From: a virus
Lineage: Duplodnaviria; Caudoviricetes
Strand: one strand, 5' to 3'
Virus record (IMG/VR): IMGVR_UViG_3300014205_000175
Location: 96,001 to 160,000 of that record
DNA length: 64,000 bases
Made by a program: the position numbers and the translations under genes. The notes below the pieces were generated by a model. That model saw only the letters and a list, made by a program, of their open reading frames with translations, was not told where the DNA came from and ran no database searches. Below, in pieces: positions 3,957-39,623 of this stretch (positions within the stretch are counted from its first letter, which is position 1; every line of letters starts with the position of its first letter).

Positions 3957-6041
3957 TTAGTATTCGGAGAAATCGGTTACTCTTCCTCGCATGTCAATCG
4001 GAATTTTACTAAGTGATATGTCGTATTGAGTAATACCACTGGTTTTTATGACCAGTCCTACCGTACGCAGCGATGCTGACGGATTACCACTATATGAAAT
4101 CAATTCCATCCAGATGAAATTAGTCATATTGGCACCCGTCAAAGGACCCAAAGCTGCAGGACCATCAGCGGACATTTTGATCAGAACTTGGTCTTTCAGC
4201 GTGTCGAATGTACAGTATCCAGCCATGTATAGCACATTGTTAGGAGCCAAGATTAAATCTGCGACCGCGCCGAGTTTACTGTAAGTATTAACACTGCCAT
4301 CTCCATCAAACTTATACCCCCACAAAGGAGTGCCAGCAGATGTAAATTTAACAATATCTCCAGTGCCCGAAGCAGCATAGATATTACCAGTTGCATCGGT
4401 AGCAAGAGTTTCGAAATTCATCCATGTGGTTATGCCAGTCTTCCATATGAGGTTACCACTAGTATCCCAGCGAGATATAAATGGTTCCGGAGTACCTTCA
4501 ACTCCTCCCCCAACATAGATATTGTCAGAACTATCTACGACTAAAGAGTTGAAAGTTAGTTTAGATGACAACTGAGTACAATACAGCGAGCGTTCCCAAA
4601 CTGTAGCTCCGGCAGAATCGCATTTAATCAAGTATCCAAATTCATCGCCGCTGCCGTCTGTATAATGTCCTGCAGCGTAAACGTTACCTTGACTGTCCGT
4701 AGCCACCCCTTCGAAAGTCGCAGATAACGTATTTCCGACGGTGTTCCTGAACCTAGCCCAGACTACACTGCCACTAGTGGTGTAACGAATAATGGAAAAA
4801 TCCAATCCCGCTACATAAATGTTATCAGCACTATCGATGTAGATAGCGGTCAGCGCAGAATGAATACTCAACGGAGTATAGTTTATGTATTTACCCCATA
4901 CCACTAGACCATCAGAGTTCAGTTTAAGAATAAGCGGATACTTCTGACTACCGCCAGCACTATCTGCGCGATACCCTACTACGTATAGATCACCGGAACT
5001 ATCTAGCGCAATATCGTAGAATTGAGTATTGGCAGCAAACGCGTACTCCCAGACCAGAGTCCCGTCGGGATTATATTTCGCGATATAGGCCTCGTAGATA
5101 GTTGCAACAGCATGATTTTGTCTACCGACAATGTAGATATGACCTGTCGCAGAATCCATCGTCAATGCTGCAATAAACGGCAGTATTGACGACGATGCTG
5201 GCTTCATGTGTTTTAACACCCACCCTTGAGAATGATGGGTAGTGAATGCTACTGTAGCAGACCAGCTAGACCAACCACCCAGTACGCTGTGATGTCGGAC
5301 ACGTGCGTAGTATTGCGTGCTTTCCGTGAGTGCTGTGGTAGGCATCCATTCGGTGAGATTAGCACTGCCTTCGTAAAACTGTACACCGGAGGTGAAATCG
5401 TTACTAGTGGAAATTTCCCATCGTACCTGATCCTGACTCTGTGAGATACCCAGATAGTCAAACGCTGATGATTTGAGTGTAGGATATTCTGACACCTGAG
5501 TGCCGTTTTGTTCAGGTGTGATGATGCTAGGCGTCGCTACACCGGCTTCGAGAACAGTGATAGTGAAAGTCGTATCATCTACCGTAAAGCCGCCATTGGT
5601 GGTTGACGCAGGTGTATAAGTGATCGTAGCACCTGAACGTGTAACCGTGCCATTGGTCGTACTGACAGCATAAGTGTCAAACACATTGTAACCGGTCAGC
5701 ACATAGACGGTGGGTTCATTAAGATAGGTTGCGATCGGTCCTGCCAGCGTTACGCCGCCTTCAGTGATCTCAGTTGGTAATGCACTCACAGGTACTTTCG
5801 CTGTACCGTCAAGTAGTGCCAATGCATTAGCTCCACCGGGCAAGTTAGCTAACGGAATCTTGACTCCAGCATCGAGCTTTACAACTCCATTGGCAACACC
5901 CAGCATGCTACGCGGAATCCAACCCATGCTGGCAGCGGCAGTCGCAGCGGTGGTAGCACCAGTGCCACCGAGGATCATCGGCAGGATGCCGGTTAGACCG
6001 ATATCGTTATAAATAGCCGGATCAAATAAAACTCTAGCCAT
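3957..6041 (-). CDS. virion tail/receptor-binding-like protein: fibre-type N-terminus, Ig/FN3-like domains, beta-propeller
   Basis: Likely start MARVLF at 6041 with AAGGAG RBS; GGTGATTAA and VANGVxxLD motifs; YYARVRHHSVLGGWSSWS FN3-like signature; repeated DSSxNIYVxG blades; ends FSEY. Confidence 0.7.
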   Translation of the reverse strand: MARVLFDPAIYNDIGLTGILPMILGGTGATTAATAAASMGWIPRSMLGVANGVVKLDAGVKIPLANLPGGANALALLDGTAKVPVSALPTEITEGGVTLAGPIATYLNEPTVYVLTGYNVFDTYAVSTTNGTVTRSGATITYTPASTTNGGFTVDDTTFTITVLEAGVATPSIITPEQNGTQVSEYPTLKSSAFDYLGISQSQDQVRWEISTSNDFTSGVQFYEGSANLTEWMPTTALTESTQYYARVRHHSVLGGWSSWSATVAFTTHHSQGWVLKHMKPASSSILPFIAALTMDSATGHIYIVGRQNHAVATIYEAYIAKYNPDGTLVWEYAFAANTQFYDIALDSSGDLYVVGYRADSAGGSQKYPLILKLNSDGLVVWGKYINYTPLSIHSALTAIYIDSADNIYVAGLDFSIIRYTTSGSVVWARFRNTVGNTLSATFEGVATDSQGNVYAAGHYTDGSGDEFGYLIKCDSAGATVWERSLYCTQLSSKLTFNSLVVDSSDNIYVGGGVEGTPEPFISRWDTSGNLIWKTGITTWMNFETLATDATGNIYAASGTGDIVKFTSAGTPLWGYKFDGDGSVNTYSKLGAVADLILAPNNVLYMAGYCTFDTLKDQVLIKMSADGPAALGPLTGANMTNFIWMELISYSGNPSASLRTVGLVIKTSGITQYDISLSKIPIDMRGRVTDFSEY

Positions 6042-19934: not shown

Positions 19935-21767
19935 ATGGCTATCACCAGCAACGTCAACATGGGCACGACCAACCAACAAAGCGCCAAGCAATCTTCCAGT
20001 GGTAATGCTCCCCGTGTCGGGTTCATCGCTGGTTCGATGTTCGGTGCTCCCATCGGTCGTGGCATCGGCTCGGAATACCTCAACAAGATCTCGGAGAATC
20101 TCGGCGAGATCTATAAGACCGCCAGTGCGGAGTTTCAGATCGATCTGATCGTGCTCGATAAGGCTAACGAGCTCTCGCTCGCCTTCTCAGCGATCGCGGT
20201 CTGCACCCGCACCAACAACGTCAATGTCGTGGGTGTGCATGTGCTGCTCGTCGAAGGCACGGGCGAAGCGCTCAAATCGGCCTACGAGAGCTTTAACAAC
20301 CAACAAGTCGAGATCACCCGCGTCACCTCCGACGCGTTCGACCAAGTGCTCGTCAACCTCGTCAACGAGCGAGTGGGCAAAGCGTTCCCGAATACGCAGA
20401 TCCTGATCGTCGATGGCTGCGTAGTGCCCGAAGAGTTCCAGCCGGACAACAAGCTGCATATGCGCATGCTCGCGCAAAACGCAGCCATGGCTGGTGGTAC
20501 TGAAGTCGATCTGCGTGCACCGGGCTTCTCGGATATCAACATTTCGGAAGATGGTCGTGGTACCAACCTGATCGTCGAGATCGGCTTCGAGCATAAGCAA
20601 CTCGATGACGCAGTGGGTATGCCGATGCGCTCGGACGTGATGATCCAGTTCCGCAGCCATCGTCCGGGTCAAGGAGCGAACCAGTCGGTCAACTCCAACG
20701 ACCGCGATATGAGCATCTCGGAGCTCTCCGGTTTCATCGACATGCTGTATGCGCCGGTGCAACCGCAGGTCAACAATCCGTGGGCACCGCAGATGCCGGG
20801 GGTGACGCAGAAGTTCGCGTCACGTTTCGTTATCACCAACCTGGCTACGACGATTGGCTACACGCCGGGCATGGTGCTGCTGTCGCTCGCAAGTGCACTG
20901 ACGCTCAACAACGACGGCAACTGGATTCAGAGCTTCCGTCCAATGGGTGCTGCAGGTGGGGCGAAGAACATCGATATCTATGATGTGGGTGCGCTGAATA
21001 TCGAGGGTAACCTCGAAAATAGCCCGACGGGTTTCGGTCAAGCACCGGACACCAAGTCGCGGGACTTCTCGCTGGAAGATCTCGGGACGTTCGTTAGCAG
21101 CCTTGTGCGTCCGGGCATCATGATCAGTATCGATGTACCTGACTGCGGCCCGCAGACCTGGTACACCAGCGTGTTCCGTGATGGTTCCAATGGTTCGCAA
21201 GCAGCGGTCGATCGCATCTATGACGCAGCCATGCAGCTGACCAATGGCAACTTCAGCAAGCACTTCGCACCAGGCATCCCGATGTTCGAAGACCAGTTCA
21301 ACCGCGTGCATCTGGGTTACTGGACGGATCAGCATGGCGCCCGCCGTGACATCCGCGACATCGATTATCTGGCAGCCGCCAACCTGATGGGCCGCAATAG
21401 CCCTGAGTATCTGCGCGACTGGAGCGATACGTTCCTGCGTGTGCAGTATCCGCTGCCGATGCGTCTGGCAGGACGCAAGAAGATGATCGAGAACCTGACG
21501 AACATGACTGCTGTGTTCAAGGGTTTTGCGACACGTGTGACGTTCAGCGCGCCGTTCCTGATGGCGCTCGCCCGTGCTTGCACTGAAGCTGGTCTGATGC
21601 CGCAGGTTAAAACGCCGCTCTCCGCACTGGACTTCAACACCCAGCGTGGCGTGGCAGGCTTCGTCAACACCGCACTGATGGCTCCGGGACACAACTTCGG
21701 CGTCACCGGTTTCGGTAACTACAACCCGGCCGCTTACGGTAACCCCAACATGTACCACCGTTGGTAA
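19935..21767 (+). CDS. chmA: chimallin (phage nucleus shell protein, ChmA/PhuN)
   Basis: 610 aa, immediately upstream of nvRNAP beta' N-subunit as for phiKZ gp54/gp55; flexible N- and C-tails; C-ending codon bias of a highly expressed gene; strong RBS and terminator. Confidence 0.8.
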   Translation: MAITSNVNMGTTNQQSAKQSSSGNAPRVGFIAGSMFGAPIGRGIGSEYLNKISENLGEIYKTASAEFQIDLIVLDKANELSLAFSAIAVCTRTNNVNVVGVHVLLVEGTGEALKSAYESFNNQQVEITRVTSDAFDQVLVNLVNERVGKAFPNTQILIVDGCVVPEEFQPDNKLHMRMLAQNAAMAGGTEVDLRAPGFSDINISEDGRGTNLIVEIGFEHKQLDDAVGMPMRSDVMIQFRSHRPGQGANQSVNSNDRDMSISELSGFIDMLYAPVQPQVNNPWAPQMPGVTQKFASRFVITNLATTIGYTPGMVLLSLASALTLNNDGNWIQSFRPMGAAGGAKNIDIYDVGALNIEGNLENSPTGFGQAPDTKSRDFSLEDLGTFVSSLVRPGIMISIDVPDCGPQTWYTSVFRDGSNGSQAAVDRIYDAAMQLTNGNFSKHFAPGIPMFEDQFNRVHLGYWTDQHGARRDIRDIDYLAAANLMGRNSPEYLRDWSDTFLRVQYPLPMRLAGRKKMIENLTNMTAVFKGFATRVTFSAPFLMALARACTEAGLMPQVKTPLSALDFNTQRGVAGFVNTALMAPGHNFGVTGFGNYNPAAYGNPNMYHRW

Positions 21768-21789: not shown

Positions 21790-21827
21790 CATCCACCCGG
21801 CCCTCATAGCCGGGTGGATGTTTTTTT
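21790..21827 (+). terminator. intrinsic terminator after chimallin
   Basis: CATCCACCCGGC/GCCGGGTGGATG stem plus T7. Confidence 0.85.
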
Positions 21828-21898
21828 GTTTCGCTGGTGTAAAACATCCACCCGACACATATCTGCTGGGTTTAGAACGAGCCAAGGAGCGACACCAT

Positions 21899-24145
21899 AT
21901 GCCCATATATCAACAGTTGGTGAATTTCACTGAGATGTTCCATCAGCTACGGGAACCACCGATCATTATCAACGATCTGCCTAATTCTACCGAGGAGGAG
22001 CGTGACTACATCACGCAGCTCATCACTACCCATTACAACAGCGACATGTTGTCGATTCTGCCTTCGTGTCGCTGTGGTAAAACCAAAGGCGAGTATGAGA
22101 TTGGGTCATTGTGCGCATACTGCAAGACCCCAGTTAAGTCACATATCTCGGAGGATATCGAACCACTCGTATGGTTCCGTCGTCCGATCGGTGTGGCGCC
22201 GCTGATCAACCCACATATCTACATCATGCTGCGCAATCGGTTTCGTAGGTCAGGTTTTGAAGTACTAGACTGGCTCACTGACACCACCTTCAGCACGAAC
22301 AGCAAACAACCTGCGGTACTCAAAACTATCCTCAACGCAGGCGTGCAACGCGGTTACAACAATTTCATAAACAACTTCGATTTCATCATGGGTGTGATGT
22401 TTTCGATCAAAGACTATAAGTTGAAAAAGGGTAAACGCGATTATCTCAGAGAACTCATCGCTCTTAACCGCGGGCAGCTATTCTCGGATTATATCCCGCT
22501 ACCGAATAAATCGCTGCTGGTGATCGAGAACAACAACCTCGGACGCTATGCGGATAACTCGATGGTGATGGCGATCGATGTGATACGCATGATCACTTCG
22601 ATCGACCGACGCTTTTCCGAACACAATGTGATCCTGCGCGAGAACCGTACCGCCAAAGCGATCACACGACTGGGAGACTTCTATGAGGCGTTCGTATCGA
22701 AGAACATGTCACCTAAGCCGGGCTTGTTCCGTAAGCACATCTTCGGTAGCCGTTCGCATTTCTCGTTTCGAGCAGTTATCACCAGTCTAACTGACCGCCA
22801 TGCGTACGACGAGATCCATGTGCCGTGGGGGATCGGGGTGACGGTGCTGCGTGACCACCTGCTCGCTAAGATGATGCGTATGGGCTATGCGCTCAATGAT
22901 GCGATAGGTATGCTACATGGTCATGTACATAACTATAACGAGATGCTCGATCAGCTTTTAAAGGAGATCATCGCTGAGAGTCCGGATTCTAGTTTAATCG
23001 CAATTTTGCAACGGAATGAAAAGCAGTAACTGTTGTAATATCTAATACGATACTGCGACTGGTTTACTGGGTTCCCTTCAGCAGAAATGCTGTCGACAAA
23101 ACTTCGTGAACTGCTGGAACACCCTGAAGGCTGCGCCACCACAAGCACCCCGAAAGGAGGTGTTGACGGTTTGACAACGGCGCGGATGAAGCACTGTGAA
23201 GTGCGGAAAGGGGCAACCGTAGGCTCTAAGAGCCTCTTTAGCAGCCAAGCTCCTACAGCTCAATAGCCACGGAGAAGGTTCAACGGCCATCGAAAGCACT
23301 GTCACCGACAGGAAGCAAGTAGAGTAGGACTCCTAGCGGGGTCCGAAGTGCGAAGCACCCGACCGAGTGACGTCGAGGGTGAAGATATGGTCTGCTCCTG
23401 TATGAACAGTACAGGCGGGTGTCTCAGCACACCGGGATGATGTAGCGACTCATCTGGACAGTAAGCCAAGTTTATTGCAAGGCTCGGCACAACGCGTCAG
23501 AATCACGAAGATCAAAACCGACCCTACCGATAACACGATTTCAATGCCTATTGAAATCGTACGCGCCCCCAATGCTGATCAACTTTCAGGTCCGGCTGTG
23601 CAGTAATGCATAGTTGTAATCTCCTTAATTGCTGGAACACCCTTAAGGCTGCGCCACCACTGCGAGTCGAAAGACAAAGCCATGGTTCGATAACGGCGCG
23701 GATGATCCGTACGTAAATGCGGTGAAAGGGGCAACCGTAGGCTCTAAGAGCCTCTGTAGCAGCCGATCTCCTAAGGCCTTAGGGCTATGGAGCGGGTTCA
23801 ACGACTAGCCCTTTAGCAAGGCGTAGGACTCCAAGCGGGGTTCGAAACAGGAGACATCCTTAACGGGATGAAGATATAGTCTGCCCCCGTATGAAAGTAC
23901 GGGCGGGTGTCTGAGCACACCGGGACGAGACAGTAGTATAAGCGACTCGTCTGGACAATGGGTTTGATGGGGACGCTTTGAACGTGATCTTAGCGTTAGA
24001 CAAGAAAATGGGGGATTTGATGCAGCCACTGGAGCCGCACTACAACGTGTTCGAAGCTAACCGTCCGCGGGCGATCTCGAACAACGTCGGATTACCCAAA
24101 CCGGTAGTCGCGACGATTGCGCACTGGTTGTCCAAGGGAGCGTAG
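21899..24145 (+). CDS. nvRNAP beta' N-terminal subunit (phiKZ gp55-like), spliced from exons 21899-23017, 23466-23579 and 23963-24145; 471 aa
   Basis: Zn finger CRCG...CAYC; FRKHIFGSR...RAVI; joined exons read LQRN|PSL...APNAD|FDGDALN, restoring the catalytic NADFDGD motif. Confidence 0.92.
23018..23465 (+). mobile_element. group I intron 1 (448 nt, no endonuclease ORF)
   Basis: 5' exon ends in U, intron ends in G; IGS GTTCC (23071-23075) pairs with exon GGAAT; P element TGCTGGAACACCCT; R GTTCAACGGCCA (23278-23289); S AAGATATGGTCT (23382-23393). Confidence 0.9.
23580..23962 (+). mobile_element. group I intron 2 (383 nt, no ORF), inside NAD|FDGD
   Basis: U|...G| boundaries restore the frame; R GTTCAACGACTA (23796-23807); S AAGATATAGTCT (23871-23882). 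Confidence 0.92.
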
Positions 24146-24211: not shown

Positions 24212-24835
24212 ATGGTTCAGGTTATTCATGGAGGATCTGACGCTTTCGATATGCTGTTGTATCCGGAACAATCTCCGCTGACCTACCAGTATTTGCAGGA
24301 CAAGATGTCACGGTTTAGTGAGACCCTGACTCAGGCAGGCAGTCGATTCATCGAAGGTTCACGGCAGCTTTTCGAACAGGTACAGAACTCCGATCTCATC
24401 CGGCGCACCAAGGCTGCGATTCGTTCGGCTAAGGCGTATTTTCACCCTAACATGATTCGACCGCTGGAGACGCTCGAAGAGTTGCAGTCGGCTACCTTGG
24501 TGATGCAGCGTTGGGTGATGGCACAACCCGACATACGACGGCTCTATCACCGGCAGTTGGTAGATGGTTATAATGAGACCTACGTCGACATGCATCCGGG
24601 TCAGGTGGGCGTAGAGCACTACGACTATCGTCGTGTCATGAGTGGTGTCGGTGTTGATACGGAAGATGGCGAAGAGTGGCGCGCGACGGTTTATTCTGAT
24701 GATCTCGTCGAAGGTGATCGGGAGCTGGATTTCGGTGAGAAAGTAGATGTGTTGCGTACGTGGGAGATTGTGGCCATGTATGCTAAAGCACGTCGGGAAG
24801 ACCCCACTAATATTTACGGTGGTGATATGGGCTGA
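24212..24835 (+). CDS. conserved phiKZ-like hypothetical protein
   Basis: AAGGAG RBS; in the core block after the nvRNAP subunit. Confidence 0.65.
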   Translation: MVQVIHGGSDAFDMLLYPEQSPLTYQYLQDKMSRFSETLTQAGSRFIEGSRQLFEQVQNSDLIRRTKAAIRSAKAYFHPNMIRPLETLEELQSATLVMQRWVMAQPDIRRLYHRQLVDGYNETYVDMHPGQVGVEHYDYRRVMSGVGVDTEDGEEWRATVYSDDLVEGDRELDFGEKVDVLRTWEIVAMYAKARREDPTNIYGGDMG

Positions 24836-24968: not shown

Positions 24969-25394
24969 ATGACTATCGTGGTACCGGCTTTATCGGAAGA
25001 TGGTTGGGTGGATTATCCTGCCAAACAGGCCGATTACATCTTTGGCCATTTCTTTTTATCCGATTATTCACAGACTTACCTGTATAAAAATCAAGTCAGT
25101 TCATTTGCACAGGTGATGCAAGAACATCAAGGCGACGTATCTAAAATTGCCCGACAGCTCGAAAGTACGTTGCGTATATATTTTTTACGCTACTTTTCCA
25201 AAGTAGAAGTCGAGTGTGATGCGATCCAAGACCCGGACAACCCTAACAAGTTTATCGTGCGGATATATCTAACCTACACCGGCACCGATGGCATCGAGCA
25301 CAACTTGGGTAAGATGGTCAATGTTCTCAACAGTAAAATCGAATCGGTAATCGCTCTTAGCAACTACGGTACCAACGTACCTAAAGACATTTAA
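24969..25394 (+). CDS. conserved hypothetical protein
   Basis: 141-aa ORF with G-rich RBS. Confidence 0.6.
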   Translation: MTIVVPALSEDGWVDYPAKQADYIFGHFFLSDYSQTYLYKNQVSSFAQVMQEHQGDVSKIARQLESTLRIYFLRYFSKVEVECDAIQDPDNPNKFIVRIYLTYTGTDGIEHNLGKMVNVLNSKIESVIALSNYGTNVPKDI

Positions 25395-33764: not shown

Positions 33765-36311
33765 ATGACTTATCCAAACGAACTACACTCTGAACTCATG
33801 GGAGTACATGCGCTCAATACCTATGCGCAACACAATTCTTCACCGCGTTCAGTAATGTTCTCGTCACACTTCAGTCAGAAACTCACGATCAAAGGCGGTA
33901 CTGAAAAACGTATTCAAACCGGTGCAGAAGTTGAATTTGCCAAACACACCTATGCCGTACGTATGCCAGTCGATGCCAAGATTATTCAGGTTATCGATTT
34001 GTATCCTACCAATATCGCCGAAGATTCGATTCCTGAAAACCCCGAATCGTATATCGTCTATGAGGATGTGCAAACGCACGAAATCGGTTGTGTAATAGCG
34101 CCTAAGTTTATCTCCCATCATCAGTACTTCGGTTATAAACTCAACCCGGTAAGTAACGCAGTTCCGGGTTCAGTCATCGCCAAAGACACGGTGTTGATGG
34201 ACTCTCCAGCAGTATCGGAGAACGGCGGCTATAAGTATGGCATCGAGCTTAACATGGCGTTGATGACCCAACCGGCAGTCGCTGAAGACGCGATCCTGAT
34301 ATCCGAGGATGTATTAGATCGTTTGTCGTTCAACGTCTATGAACGGCGTACGGTAGAATTCGGTAAGAGCAACTACCCACTGAACCTCTACGGCGACATG
34401 GAGAAATACAAACCCTTCCCTGAAATCGGTGAGTACGTGCGTGATGATGGGGTACTGATGATTCTGCGCGACATGGACACCGATCTGGCACCGGTGGATA
34501 TGAGCGTCTATGACGTCAGAGAGCCTGATTATACTTTCGATAAATCAGTGTATGTCAGAGGTCCGAAAGGCAAAGTGGTATCAATCCGTTCTTACCACAA
34601 CGAGCAACCGACATCTCCTACCCCTACTGGCATGATGGAGTATATGGATAAATACCCGCGAGCAATGCGGCGTTTTTATACACGGGTACTAGAAGTGGAG
34701 AATCGTCTTCGCTACGAGCGTCGCAAAAAGTTCGGTGACGATTATCTGCCGATGAAGCCAGAGTTTCATCAGCTGGTTATTGATGCGATGATGTATCTAG
34801 ACCACAAACCCATTGACAAGAAGGCTCCTCCGCTGACGCTAGAGCATCGTAAAACACCGCTGGACGATTATCGTATCGAGTTCGTTATCGAATACACGAT
34901 CCGTCCGACAGTGGGTTTCAAAATGACAGATATGCATGGTGGTTTAATTGTAGTTCAGTTGGTGTATTGATTGAACTGCATGGCCTTGCCCGGTAGAGAT
35001 GCCGGAACAAAATCTTCCTTAACTGTCTGGAACACCCTTAAGGCTGCGCCACCACATGCATCCTGAAAAGAGATGTAGACGGTCTGACAACGGCGCGGAT
35101 GACCTGTACGTAGTATGTACAGTGAAAGGGGCAACCAGCAGCCAAGCTCCTACAGCTTAACAGCCATGGAGAAGGTTCAACGACTAACCGCTTACCACGG
35201 TGTAGGGCTCCGAGCGGAGTTCGAAATGGGAAGCACCCGACCGAGTGATGTCGAGGGTGAAGATATAGTCTGCCCCCGTATGAAAGTATGGGCGGGTGTC
35301 TGAGCACACCGGGATGAGACAGTAGTATGAGCGACTCGTCTGGACAATGGGAAAGGAGTTATTTGCAAGATCGAAAAACCGGAGAATATGCCGGTAGATG
35401 CTGATGGCAATCGTGCCGATATCGTCATGGCACCTGAATCCACAGTAGCACGAATGAACTTAGGTCGCGTCTATGAGATGTATGTCAGTGGGGCGTGTCG
35501 TGATACGGCTAAAACAGTACGTAAAATGCTCGCCGTAGAAGGCACACGTGAAAATCGTGTGCTGCGTTCACTCGAAGCCGTACAGCAACAAGACCCGCAG
35601 CGCATCGAGCAGACCTACAACTATCTGCTCGGCTTTTATCAACTCATTTCGGAGAAACAGCACGCTTTTTATGCCGCACTCGGGTTACCGCAACGGCTAG
35701 AACATTTAGCTAGCGTGGTGGTCGATGGGATCTATATCTACTGTCCGACCGATAACCAGAAGGAAACTCCTGATATCGTCAAGGACTTGGAGAAGGATTA
35801 CCCGCAGATCTACGGTCCGGTCGCTTATGTCGGTAACTCAGGACAACGTGTTACGACTCAGGCCAAAGTTCGCATCGCGCCGTTGTACATGATGTTGCTA
35901 GAGAAAATCGCCGATGACTGGTCGGCTGTATCTTCGGCGCGACTACAGCACTTTGGGGTATTGGCTCCGATGACTAAGTCGGAAAAGTACCTGCGCCCAT
36001 GGCATAACTCTCCGGTACGTAACATCGGTGAGACCGAAGCACGTATCTACTCGGGCTACTGCGGCCGGGAAGCGATCGCTGAGATGATGGATCGTAGCAA
36101 CAATCCTCTCGCTCATAAGCAGATCGTGCGTAACATCTTAGCTGCTGAGAAACCCGGTAACATCGATGAAGTTATCGATCGCAACATCATACCGTTAGGA
36201 GGCTCGAAACCGTTGCAACTCTTTAACCATTTCTCCATCTGCCAAGGCTGGCGTCCGGTCTATACGCCCGAGTCGCAAATCGACAACACTTTACCACCTA
36301 TCGCGCAGTAA
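33765..36311 (+). CDS. nvRNAP beta subunit (phiKZ gp71-73-like), spliced from exons 33765-34943 and 35352-36311; 712 aa
   Basis: EDAILIS; joined GFKMTDMHGG|KGVICKI (cf. GDKxxxRHGNKG); ADIVMAPESTVARMNLG; YMMLLEK; NIGETE. Confidence 0.92.
34944..35351 (+). mobile_element. group I intron 3 (408 nt, no ORF)
   Basis: U|...G| boundaries restore the frame; Q GGGCAACCAGCAGCC; R GTTCAACGACTA (35175-35186); S AAGATATAGTCT (35260-35271); same 3' end CTGGACAATGGG as intron 2. Confidence 0.92.
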
Positions 36312-37718: not shown

Positions 37719-39623
37719 ATGAGTATTCTGTGCGATAAAGAGATCATCTCGTTGTGCGAGGGACCGAACCCGATGATCTCCCCGTTCAAATCTCATCAGG
37801 TACGCTACCGGACCTCGAATGATCCGTCGCGTAACCGTGAACGCATCGTCGATGGTGTGACCGTGTGTGATGAGAAGATCGTCTCGTACGGTACGTCTAG
37901 TTTCGGCTACGATGTACGCTGTGGTAACAAGTTCAAGATCTTCACCAACATCAATTCCACCATCGTCGACCCGAAGAATTTCGATGAGAAATCATTCGTC
38001 GAATACGAAGGCGATTGCTGCATCATCCCGCCCAATTCATTCGCTCTGGCTAATACGGTCGAGTATTTTCGCATTCCGCGCGATATCCTGACGATCTGTG
38101 TCGGTAAATCCACGTACGCTAGGTGCTTTACTGGCGATACCAAGGTAGCGCTGGTGGATGGAACCTCGGCTAGTTTCGAGGATTTGGTCGAAAGGGCGAA
38201 AACAGGTGAGCGCTTCTGGGGCTATAGTGTTGACGATGACGCTAACATCGTAGTAGCAGAACTTACCCAGCCTCGTAAGATCGGTCACGAAAGAATCATC
38301 GAAGTAGAACTGGATAATGGTGAAGTTATTAAGTGTACGCCTGATCATAAGTTCATACTTCTCGACGGCAGTTACGTTGAAGCCCAGCATCTTCAGATTA
38401 ACCAAAGCCTGATGCCTCTCTACCGAGTTGAAACACGCGGTTATGAGGCCGTCGTTCAGCCGACTACGTTTAGTTTCATTAGTACCCATCATTTATCAGA
38501 TGCGTGGAACCTTAAAAACAATGTTTATGAGGCAGGTGAAAACGAACACCGGCACCACGCAAATCATAATCGTCGGGATAACCGCCCTACCAACATCGTA
38601 CGAAAAAACGCATCCGAGCATCTTCGAGAGCATAATGCTGAAAGAATGAATGATGCTGATTATAGGAGTAGGCTCAGCGAGCTGCGTAAAGAAGCTTTCC
38701 GAAAACACGACCAAGATCCTAGTTGGCACCAAGGTTTTGTACAAAGATGCAAGGCGGCTGCAGACGCATTTTGGAATTCTGACGAACACTCGGAGACTCG
38801 TCAGAAGGTTTTGTTTGGGCGGAAGAACTATGGCGCCAACATGTCCGCTGAAGAACGCCAAAAGCGGTCCGAAATAATGCGGGTGCTGATGATGGATGTT
38901 GTCAGAAGGAAGGAAAGCGCCGAGAGATTTAATGCACTGTGGGAAGATCCTGAATTCCGTGCAAACAAAGTTAATCAGGCACGTAGTCTGAATCTCCGTA
39001 CCGAAATCACGGAATGTGAGGTAAGGGACGCTCTTGAAAAAGCAGGAACTCTGCGAGGAGCCGCGCGTTTACTGGATTGTGATCGGACGGTGTTCCGTCG
39101 TTTCCGGGATCTTGTCCTGGAGTTCAAAGATAAAATCCAAGCGGCGAGACTTTCAACTGACGACGTTCTGGATGCTCTGAGGAAAACTGGTTCTGTCAGA
39201 AAGGCTGCAAAATATCTTGACATTGGTCGGAGTAAACTTCTGTCATATAAGGAGGCTGTTAGTGCTTATTATGGTAAACCGGTAGCTGAAAATCATAAGG
39301 TGGCAGCGATCCGGGAAGTGTCGGGGACGCATGATGTTTATTGTCTTAGCGTTCCAGAGCACGGGAATTTCGCACTGGAAGCGGGAGTGTTCGTCAAGAA
39401 CTGCGGGATTATCGTAAACGTAACTCCGTTCGAACCCGAGTGGGAAGGTTTCGTGACTCTGGAGTTCTCCAACACCACTCCGCTACCGGCTAAGATCTAC
39501 GCCAACGAAGGCTGTGCGCAGGTATTGTTTTTCCGTGGTGATGTACCGTGCGAAGTCTCGTATCGTGACCGGGCAGGTAAGTACATGAACCAAGTCGCTA
39601 GCCCTGTTATCCCGCGTGTGTGA
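37719..39623 (+). CDS. dcd: dCTP deaminase containing an intein
   Basis: [28 protein letters not shown]|...|[24 protein letters not shown]; 208 aa after splicing. Confidence 0.93.
38124..39401 (+). mobile_element. intein (426 aa) with HNH-type endonuclease and HTH-like repeats
   Basis: CFTGDTKV start, CTPDHKF block B, VYCLSV block F, ends VKN before Cys+1; [15 protein letters not shown]. Confidence 0.9.

Follow-up and report, generated by a model that had tools for sequence, protein, structure and literature searches.

Introns in nucleus-forming phages have been reviewed as carriers of endonucleases that target conserved active-site codons, and the intron nuclease of PhiPA3 has been described as a weapon against phiKZ (PMC12908238; PMC11620839). 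In neither of these two sources did we find a description of endonuclease-free intron copies. Among described elements, the gp56 intron of phiKZ, predicted by Mesyanzhinov et al. 2002, as cited in PMC10914365, interrupts the gene for the N-terminal half of the β′ subunit of the non-virion RNA polymerase (nvRNAP). Here, we analyze the same gene in a 64,000-nucleotide stretch of viral DNA (the window), which comprises bases 96001-160000 of the 202,826-base IMG/VR record IMGVR_UViG_3300014205_000175, estimated to be 75% complete. Two group I introns without endonuclease genes very probably interrupt the gene at this locus, and their splicing would restore a subunit of 471 amino acids (aa).

In phiKZ, as in the window, the interrupted gene adjoins the gene of the phage nuclear shell protein, and a group I intron of the same family lies within the codons of the catalytic NADFDGD motif, leaving a 3′ exon of ~60 codons. 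The phiKZ ribozyme in gene 55 matches the Rfam group I model RF00028 at 75.6 bits. Unlike the window introns, the phiKZ intron is 1372 nt long and carries the HNH_3/NUMOD endonuclease gp56 (gene order gp55, gp56, gp56.1). It sits at N↓ADFDGD (AAU↓GCU GAU UUU, with arrows marking insertion points), 6 nt upstream of the NAD↓FDGD site of the window, and the other window site, RN↓PS, has no intron in phiKZ. Pseudomonas phage fnug (MT133560, species Phikzvirus phiKZ) shares the three exons and short middle exon of the window (genes fnug_67 to fnug_70) as well as a first intron at the identical RN↓P site, and its two introns match RF00028 at 87.5 and 74.8 bits. The fnug introns differ in holding HNH_3 open reading frames (ORFs) of 273 aa (first) and 366 aa (second), and the second is inserted after NADFDGD, 9 nt downstream of the corresponding window site. 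The gene pieces are annotated in the fnug record as separate hypothetical proteins.

A group I intron also lies in gp210 of PhiPA3, again in a chimallivirus RNA polymerase gene and beside conserved catalytic aspartates (Birkholz et al. 2024, PMC11620839); this is, however, a virion RNA polymerase gene, and the HNH endonuclease of its intron was shown to harm co-infecting phage (PMC11620839). Phages Twort and T4 resemble the window in having several related self-splicing introns in essential conserved genes of one genome, with a core similarity that suggests recombination or within-genome spread, but they belong to other phage families and the host genes are others, whereas the window copies all lie in motifs of the nvRNAP catalytic center. 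Multiple group I introns in single genes, whether ORF-less or ORF-bearing, are known from Twort and from td, nrdB, and sunY of T4; multi-intron phage genes such as those of Twort were reportedly treated by Landthaler in 2002.

The interrupted gene of the window is laid out as follows.

21899-23017, plus strand: exon 1 of the nvRNAP β′ N-half gene, 373 codons, covering positions 1-380 of phrog_2987
23018-23465, plus strand: intron 1, a predicted ORF-less group I intron of 448 nt, between codons RN↓PS, ending in ...GUAAG
23466-23579, plus strand: exon 2, 114 nt or 38 codons, encoding PSLLQGSAQ...RAPNAD, covering phrog_2987 positions 381-418
23580-23962, plus strand: intron 2, a predicted ORF-less group I intron of 383 nt, between codons NAD↓FDGD, ending in ...AAUGGG
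23963-24145, plus strand: exon 3, 60 codons and a stop, encoding FDGDALN...SKGA, covering phrog_2987 positions 419-475

Homology identifies the gene as the counterpart of phiKZ gp55, the N-terminal half of nvRNAP β′. Its product matches phrog_2987 (RNA polymerase beta subunit) with an E value of 6.7e-110, and the best solved relative of exon 1 is chain A of phiKZ nvRNAP (7OGP), named PHIKZ055/PHIKZ056.1 (E 2.8e-64). By the same homology, the enzyme would be absent from the virion and act in middle and late transcription, a role that we take over from the phiKZ literature rather than from the sequence of the window. The closest cultured relative by protein is Burkholderia phage FLC9, which is 47% identical and has no introns.

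Read without splicing, the frame runs only four codons beyond 23017 (E K Q stop) and closes at 23029, inside intron 1. Exon 1 ends in ...LQRN (CAA CGG AAU), exon 2 begins with CCA AGU and ends with AAU GCU GAU, and exon 3 begins with UUU GAU GGG GAC. The joined exons form a 1416-nt frame for a 471-aa protein that reads LQRN↓PSLLQGSAQ...RAPNAD↓FDGDALN. This is the protein that the original prediction had obtained by removing the same two segments, and the ORF stop, the exon and intron coordinates, the U at the end of both 5′ exons, the G at the end of both introns, and the short middle exon are all as it had given them. The three exon translations tile phrog_2987 (478 positions) without overlap or gap. 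Aligned with FLC9, seven intronless metagenomic homologues, and spliced phiKZ gp55-56.1, the spliced protein shows no indel at either junction, so that the colinearity with the phiKZ protein proposed at the outset is borne out; all of the aligned homologues (n = 9) read RNP(S/T)L and NAD(F/Y)DGD across the joins. The exons contain no frameshifts or stops, and every conserved residue near both junctions is kept.

Both insertion points fall in conserved polymerase segments. Intron 1 interrupts RNP(S/T)L, which presumably corresponds to NRAPTLH of bacterial β′, and intron 2 separates the first Asp of the Mg-binding loop NADFDGD from the Phe that follows it. The catalytic loop becomes contiguous only across the join of exons 2 and 3, in line with the claim that an intron cuts this motif. 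Placing the 5′ splice site of intron 2 after AAU (as in phiKZ) or after GCU was rejected, since the 3′ exon lacks the codons that would then be missing. We also rejected inteins, as both inserts contain in-frame stops.

We searched the inserts with RF00028, for which Rfam sets a gathering score of 50 bits. Intron 2 was found in a search of the whole window (23570-23903, 64.1 bits, E 6e-14), and intron 1 was found with a permissive threshold in a 1.5-kb search (23045-23415, 32.9 bits, E 3e-6). The prediction that both inserts would match a group I model was thus upheld outright for intron 2, while the match of intron 1 stays under the cut-off. By these E values, both matches lie far beyond chance.

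The integrity of the predicted cores was assessed on an alignment of the window's three introns (the third lies in the nvRNAP β gene, described below) with five ORF-less relatives (n = 8). The structure comprised 56 pairs from P3 to P9.2, namely the helices given by RNAalifold together with P7, which was written as a pseudoknot (P3/P7). Standard pairs form in 95% of the cells (56 pairs, eight introns) compared with 36-43% when the partners are slid by one to three columns, and 34 of the 56 pairs show compensatory changes on both sides. None of 500 shuffles reached any of the observed measures of pairing or covariation. Of the consensus pairs, 51 of 54 form in intron 1 and 51 of 56 in intron 2. 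The three failed pairs of intron 1 lie in a single peripheral helix, at a point where the window introns have an insertion and the alignment is doubtful. P7 of intron 1 reads GGCCA/UGGUC compared with GACUA/UAGUC in the family; one pair is altered in both bases and another in a single base, and the two remain paired. Because the core pairs are kept, we attribute the low Rfam score of intron 1 to extra peripheral sequence and not to a damaged core. Judged by sequence and covariation, both inserts classify as group I introns with intact cores.

The predicted P1 helices agree with the splice sites. In intron 1, the exon sequence GGAAU pairs with GUUCC, placing a U·G wobble at the cleavage site, and UGG just 5′ of this guide can pair with the CCA that begins exon 2 (P10), giving a contiguous P1-P10 guide. 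In intron 2, GAU↓C pairs with GGUC, again with U·G at the splice site, and a GCU/GGC extension follows across one bulged C. These P1 pairings come from inspection and a minimum free energy fold rather than from covariation. A tentative assignment to subgroup IA is suggested by the long stretch that separates P7 from the 3′ strand of P3. The peripheral additions comprise a long P1 loop in intron 1 and an extra hairpin in introns 1 and 2. This hairpin, GUAGGCUCUAAGAGCCUCxGU (21 nt), lies between GGGCAACC and AGCAGCC at 23219-23239 and 23737-23757 of the window and near 4395-4415 of L041, one of the metagenomic relatives described below; it is missing from intron 3 and from the other relatives.

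Neither intron encodes a recognizable endonuclease. The largest ATG-initiated ORFs have 70 aa (intron 1) and 36 aa (intron 2), a 59-aa ORF at 23087-23266 in intron 1 has no Pfam match, and no intron-encoded homing endonuclease emerged from the ORF and Pfam checks of the two introns, in agreement with the claim that none is encoded in cis. Across the whole 203-kb record, no GIY-YIG or HNH match was obtained. The sole endonuclease-like signal there is a weak HNH_3 match (16.3 bits, E 0.0018) at window positions 38553-38624, where another gene has an open frame of 635 aa.

A third, paralogous intron splits the gene for the nvRNAP β subunit.

33765-34943 and 35352-36311, plus strand: exons of the nvRNAP β gene, of which the 3′ exon matches Pfam RNA_pol_Rpb2_6
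34944-35351, plus strand: intron 3, a predicted ORF-less group I intron of 408 nt, matching RF00028 at 34936-35292 with 72.9 bits

Intron 3 splits MHGG↓KGVI, its 5′ exon ends in U, and it ends in ...GGACAAUGGG, like intron 2. Core identity among the three window introns is 72-82%, with intron 3 at 80-82% to introns 2 and 1, and the window introns are 60-77% identical to introns at the same sites elsewhere. An RF00028 search of the phage's own genome gave only introns 2 and 3, and when the three introns were compared with the 203-kb record by blastn, no additional copies appeared. In a FastTree analysis of 16 cores (window cores 23096-23465, 23614-23962, and 35007-35351), which used a short alignment and is effectively unrooted, the three window introns cluster, with the site-1 intron of relative L017 nested among them at weak support (0.52, 0.67). 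The two introns of L012 cluster, as do the first two of L009, and introns at one insertion site in different genomes do not cluster; support is moderate. This grouping of cores by genome and not by site gives a hint that introns spread, or were gene-converted, inside single genomes; exchange of this type between cores is known from T4.

We compared the locus with 35 related loci from IMG/VR and metagenomes, about fourteen of which have no introns. The two closest relatives, L041 and L043, came from the protein search. In the relative with 73% protein identity (L041), ILQRNPSLLQGSAQ is unbroken at site 1 (RN↓PS) with identical flanking residues, and a homologous intron occupies site 2 (NAD↓FDGD). 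The opposite pattern is seen at 67% identity in L043, where site 1 holds an HNH_3-bearing intron and site 2 is empty, exons 2 and 3 being fused into a 96-aa ORF. In L016, the intron at NAD↓FDGD contains a 341-aa ORF with a weak HNH_3 match. Near relatives are thus polymorphic for the presence or absence of an intron at both sites, and in other genomes introns with endonucleases occupy each of the sites. The empty sites in near relatives fix the intron boundaries independently of any RNA model. Since the sites are polymorphic and elsewhere host endonuclease-bearing introns, past mobility would be the simplest history.

Endonuclease-free introns of the same family interrupt the same gene in further relatives, whose proteins are 39-56% identical to that of the window. 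L017 (ERZ795061 NODE-3196) has two ORF-less introns at the window's two sites, as judged at the protein level. L012/L018 (Ga0172372_10000728) has ORF-less introns at site 2 and ~7 codons downstream of site 1, and L009 (IMGVR_UViG_3300021167_000382) has ORF-less introns at site 1 and on either side of a putative 12-nt exon. Site 2 is occupied in L012, L016, L017, and L041. We found no published description of the introns in L017, L012/L018, and L009.

Some of these relatives depart in detail from the usual splice-site pattern. The region 5174-6293 of L009 apparently contains three introns, at RN↓PS, NA↓D, and DYDG↓D, which leave the 12-nt exon GACTATGACGGT (6002-6013); the third has a clean P1 (GACGGU/GCCGUC) with an adjoining P10 (GAC/GUU), and it must end in A rather than G to keep the frame. 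In L017, the site-1 intron (2167-2181) seems to end in ...CUCUGA↓CCU, where again the frame needs a terminal A unless the assembly is in error. In L012 (5640-5643) and L041 (4231-4234), the NAD↓FDGD intron follows GAC, not GAU. Because the exon ends in C, the P1 of these two site-2 introns (guide GUC or GGUC) would have a C-G pair in place of the near-universal U·G.

Across L002, L005, L009, L012, L016, L017, L041, and the window, with phiKZ and fnug included, there are at least five insertion points within ~21 nt of NADFDGD: N↓A (phiKZ), NA↓D (L009), NAD↓F (window, L012, L016, L017, L041), DYDG↓D (L009), and DFDGD↓Q (fnug). Further insertions cluster at RN↓PS (window, L009, L017, L043, fnug) and ~7 codons downstream of it (L012). 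Among the best 120 homologous gene calls, 58 have at most 395 aa and end near site 1, 36 have 396-452 aa and end near NADFDGD, and 26 have at least 455 aa, a rough tally in that some short calls may be contig ends. From these lengths, most members of the window's clade would seem to have an interruption close to site 1, site 2, or both. Neither the type of element nor its host gene or motif is new, and the two-intron layout was known from the published fnug genome. Particular to the window are the lack of an endonuclease in both introns and in the third one in the β gene, an NAD↓F insertion point that differs from those of phiKZ and fnug, and near relatives in which each site is either empty or nuclease-bearing.

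From these features, we infer that the introns would self-splice in vivo. The primary transcript would fold into two independent ribozyme cores, and each intron would be removed by two transesterifications started by free guanosine, with its guide sequence pairing to the upstream exon end through the U·G wobble. Ligation of the three exons would then yield the frame for the complete subunit. If splicing failed, translation would terminate after the first four codons of intron 1, and the catalytic loop would not be produced. Because the unspliced message stops there, nvRNAP, and hence middle and late transcription, would depend on both events; it would also depend on a third splicing event, in the β gene.

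Several observations weigh against this account. Intron 1 falls short of the Rfam gathering threshold (32.9 against 50 bits), and P10 of intron 2 is weak or absent. A trans-acting endonuclease or splicing factor may be encoded elsewhere in the genome, as the record is only ~75% complete. Moreover, under the conditions of a long-read transcriptome study of phiKZ, no reads showed the gp56, gp72, and gp179 introns being spliced, so that in vivo splicing in the phiKZ-like group is less documented than often assumed (PMC10914365). The solved phiKZ nvRNAP chain is nonetheless named as a gp55/gp56.1 fusion (7OGP).

That phiKZ introns were not seen to be spliced in that one transcriptome (PMC10914365) would also fit group I introns that are not autonomous. 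Such introns would have lost an intron-encoded protein and would need a helper in trans, with a host or phage RNA chaperone or the phage-nucleus environment as candidates, and splicing would then be a regulated step in the formation of nvRNAP. The large peripheral additions in both introns (long P1 loop, 21-nt hairpin) are compatible with such a need, but the core is complete and covaries like those of self-splicing phage introns, and we regard this explanation as quite unlikely. Most phage group I introns studied self-splice in vitro, which also counts against it. It is highly improbable that one or both introns, especially intron 1, have decayed and that the gene is a pseudogene in a defective or mis-assembled genome. 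The score of intron 1 under the Rfam cut-off would fit decay, as would a record that is a metagenome assembly of partial estimated completeness; against it, nearly all consensus pairs of intron 1 are retained, the P7 substitutions are compensated, and the exons are free of frameshifts and stops, with junction residues conserved. Jumbo-phage RNA polymerase subunits are already divided into separate genes (PMC7598289), but the chance that β′ is split further here into three fragments translated separately, with the spacers staying in the RNA, is next to negligible. Exons 2 and 3 begin with CCA and UUU, and neither junction offers a start codon or a ribosome-binding site; the spacers covary and fit a ribozyme model; the catalytic loop would be cut apart by a break between the Asp and the Phe of NADFDGD; and in relatives the same residues are contiguous.

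As to the origin of the two introns, mobile introns driven by HNH endonucleases circulate among these phages, and the window copies are most likely their remnants or passengers, since relatives have HNH_3-bearing introns at exactly these sites and the nearest relatives have one site or the other empty. Loss of the endonuclease would be the step by which the present copies arose. A more tentative idea, which we consider rather unlikely, is that endonuclease-free introns are kept as protection because they occupy the target sites of HNH endonucleases of competing chimalliviruses. If so, RN↓PS, NAD↓FDGD, and HGG↓KG (in β) would be uncuttable in co-infection without the cost of a nuclease, and the clustering of cores by genome would reflect one resident ribozyme that spread, or was gene-converted, onto each attacked site.

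The surroundings of the gene support its assignment and its start.

19935-21767, plus strand: gene for chimallin, the phage nuclear shell protein (phrog_4795, E 1e-84)
21790-21828, plus strand: terminator-like hairpin (CCACCCGGC...GCCGGGTGG, then a T run), read from the sequence, between the shell and polymerase genes
21884-21889, plus strand: ribosome-binding site AAGGAG, 9 nt 5′ of the ATG at 21899

The shell gene lies directly upstream of the polymerase gene, in the same order as gp54 (shell) and gp55 in phiKZ; from the shell gene and this order, the source phage is assigned to the chimalliviruses (nucleus-forming jumbo phages), as an uncultured member. A gene start at 21899 is supported by the predicted ribosome-binding site, and the homologues begin at the same residue. 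The alternative ATG at 21818 falls within the terminator-like hairpin. Neither of the downstream neighbors (24212-24835 and 24969-25394) matches Pfam, and neither is a candidate endonuclease gene. No near-identical DNA was found among GenBank phages. A search of 5.8 billion proteins with exon 1 returned the window's own 376-aa call at 100% and a next match at 73% identity, and it found no high-identity spliced or intronless form. A second gp55-like gene was not seen in the genome, in a search that was not exhaustive.

For annotation, the consequence is that the true product of this gene would be the 471-aa catalytic subunit in place of the 373-403-aa fragment given by gene callers, and truncation of the same kind seems to affect many homologous calls in public data. 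Group I introns appear to crowd into the codons around the active center of chimallivirus RNA polymerases. Because these phages separate transcription from translation, the three obligatory splicing events predicted before nvRNAP can form would offer a handy system for asking where and how phage introns are spliced, a question that reaches beyond this genome.

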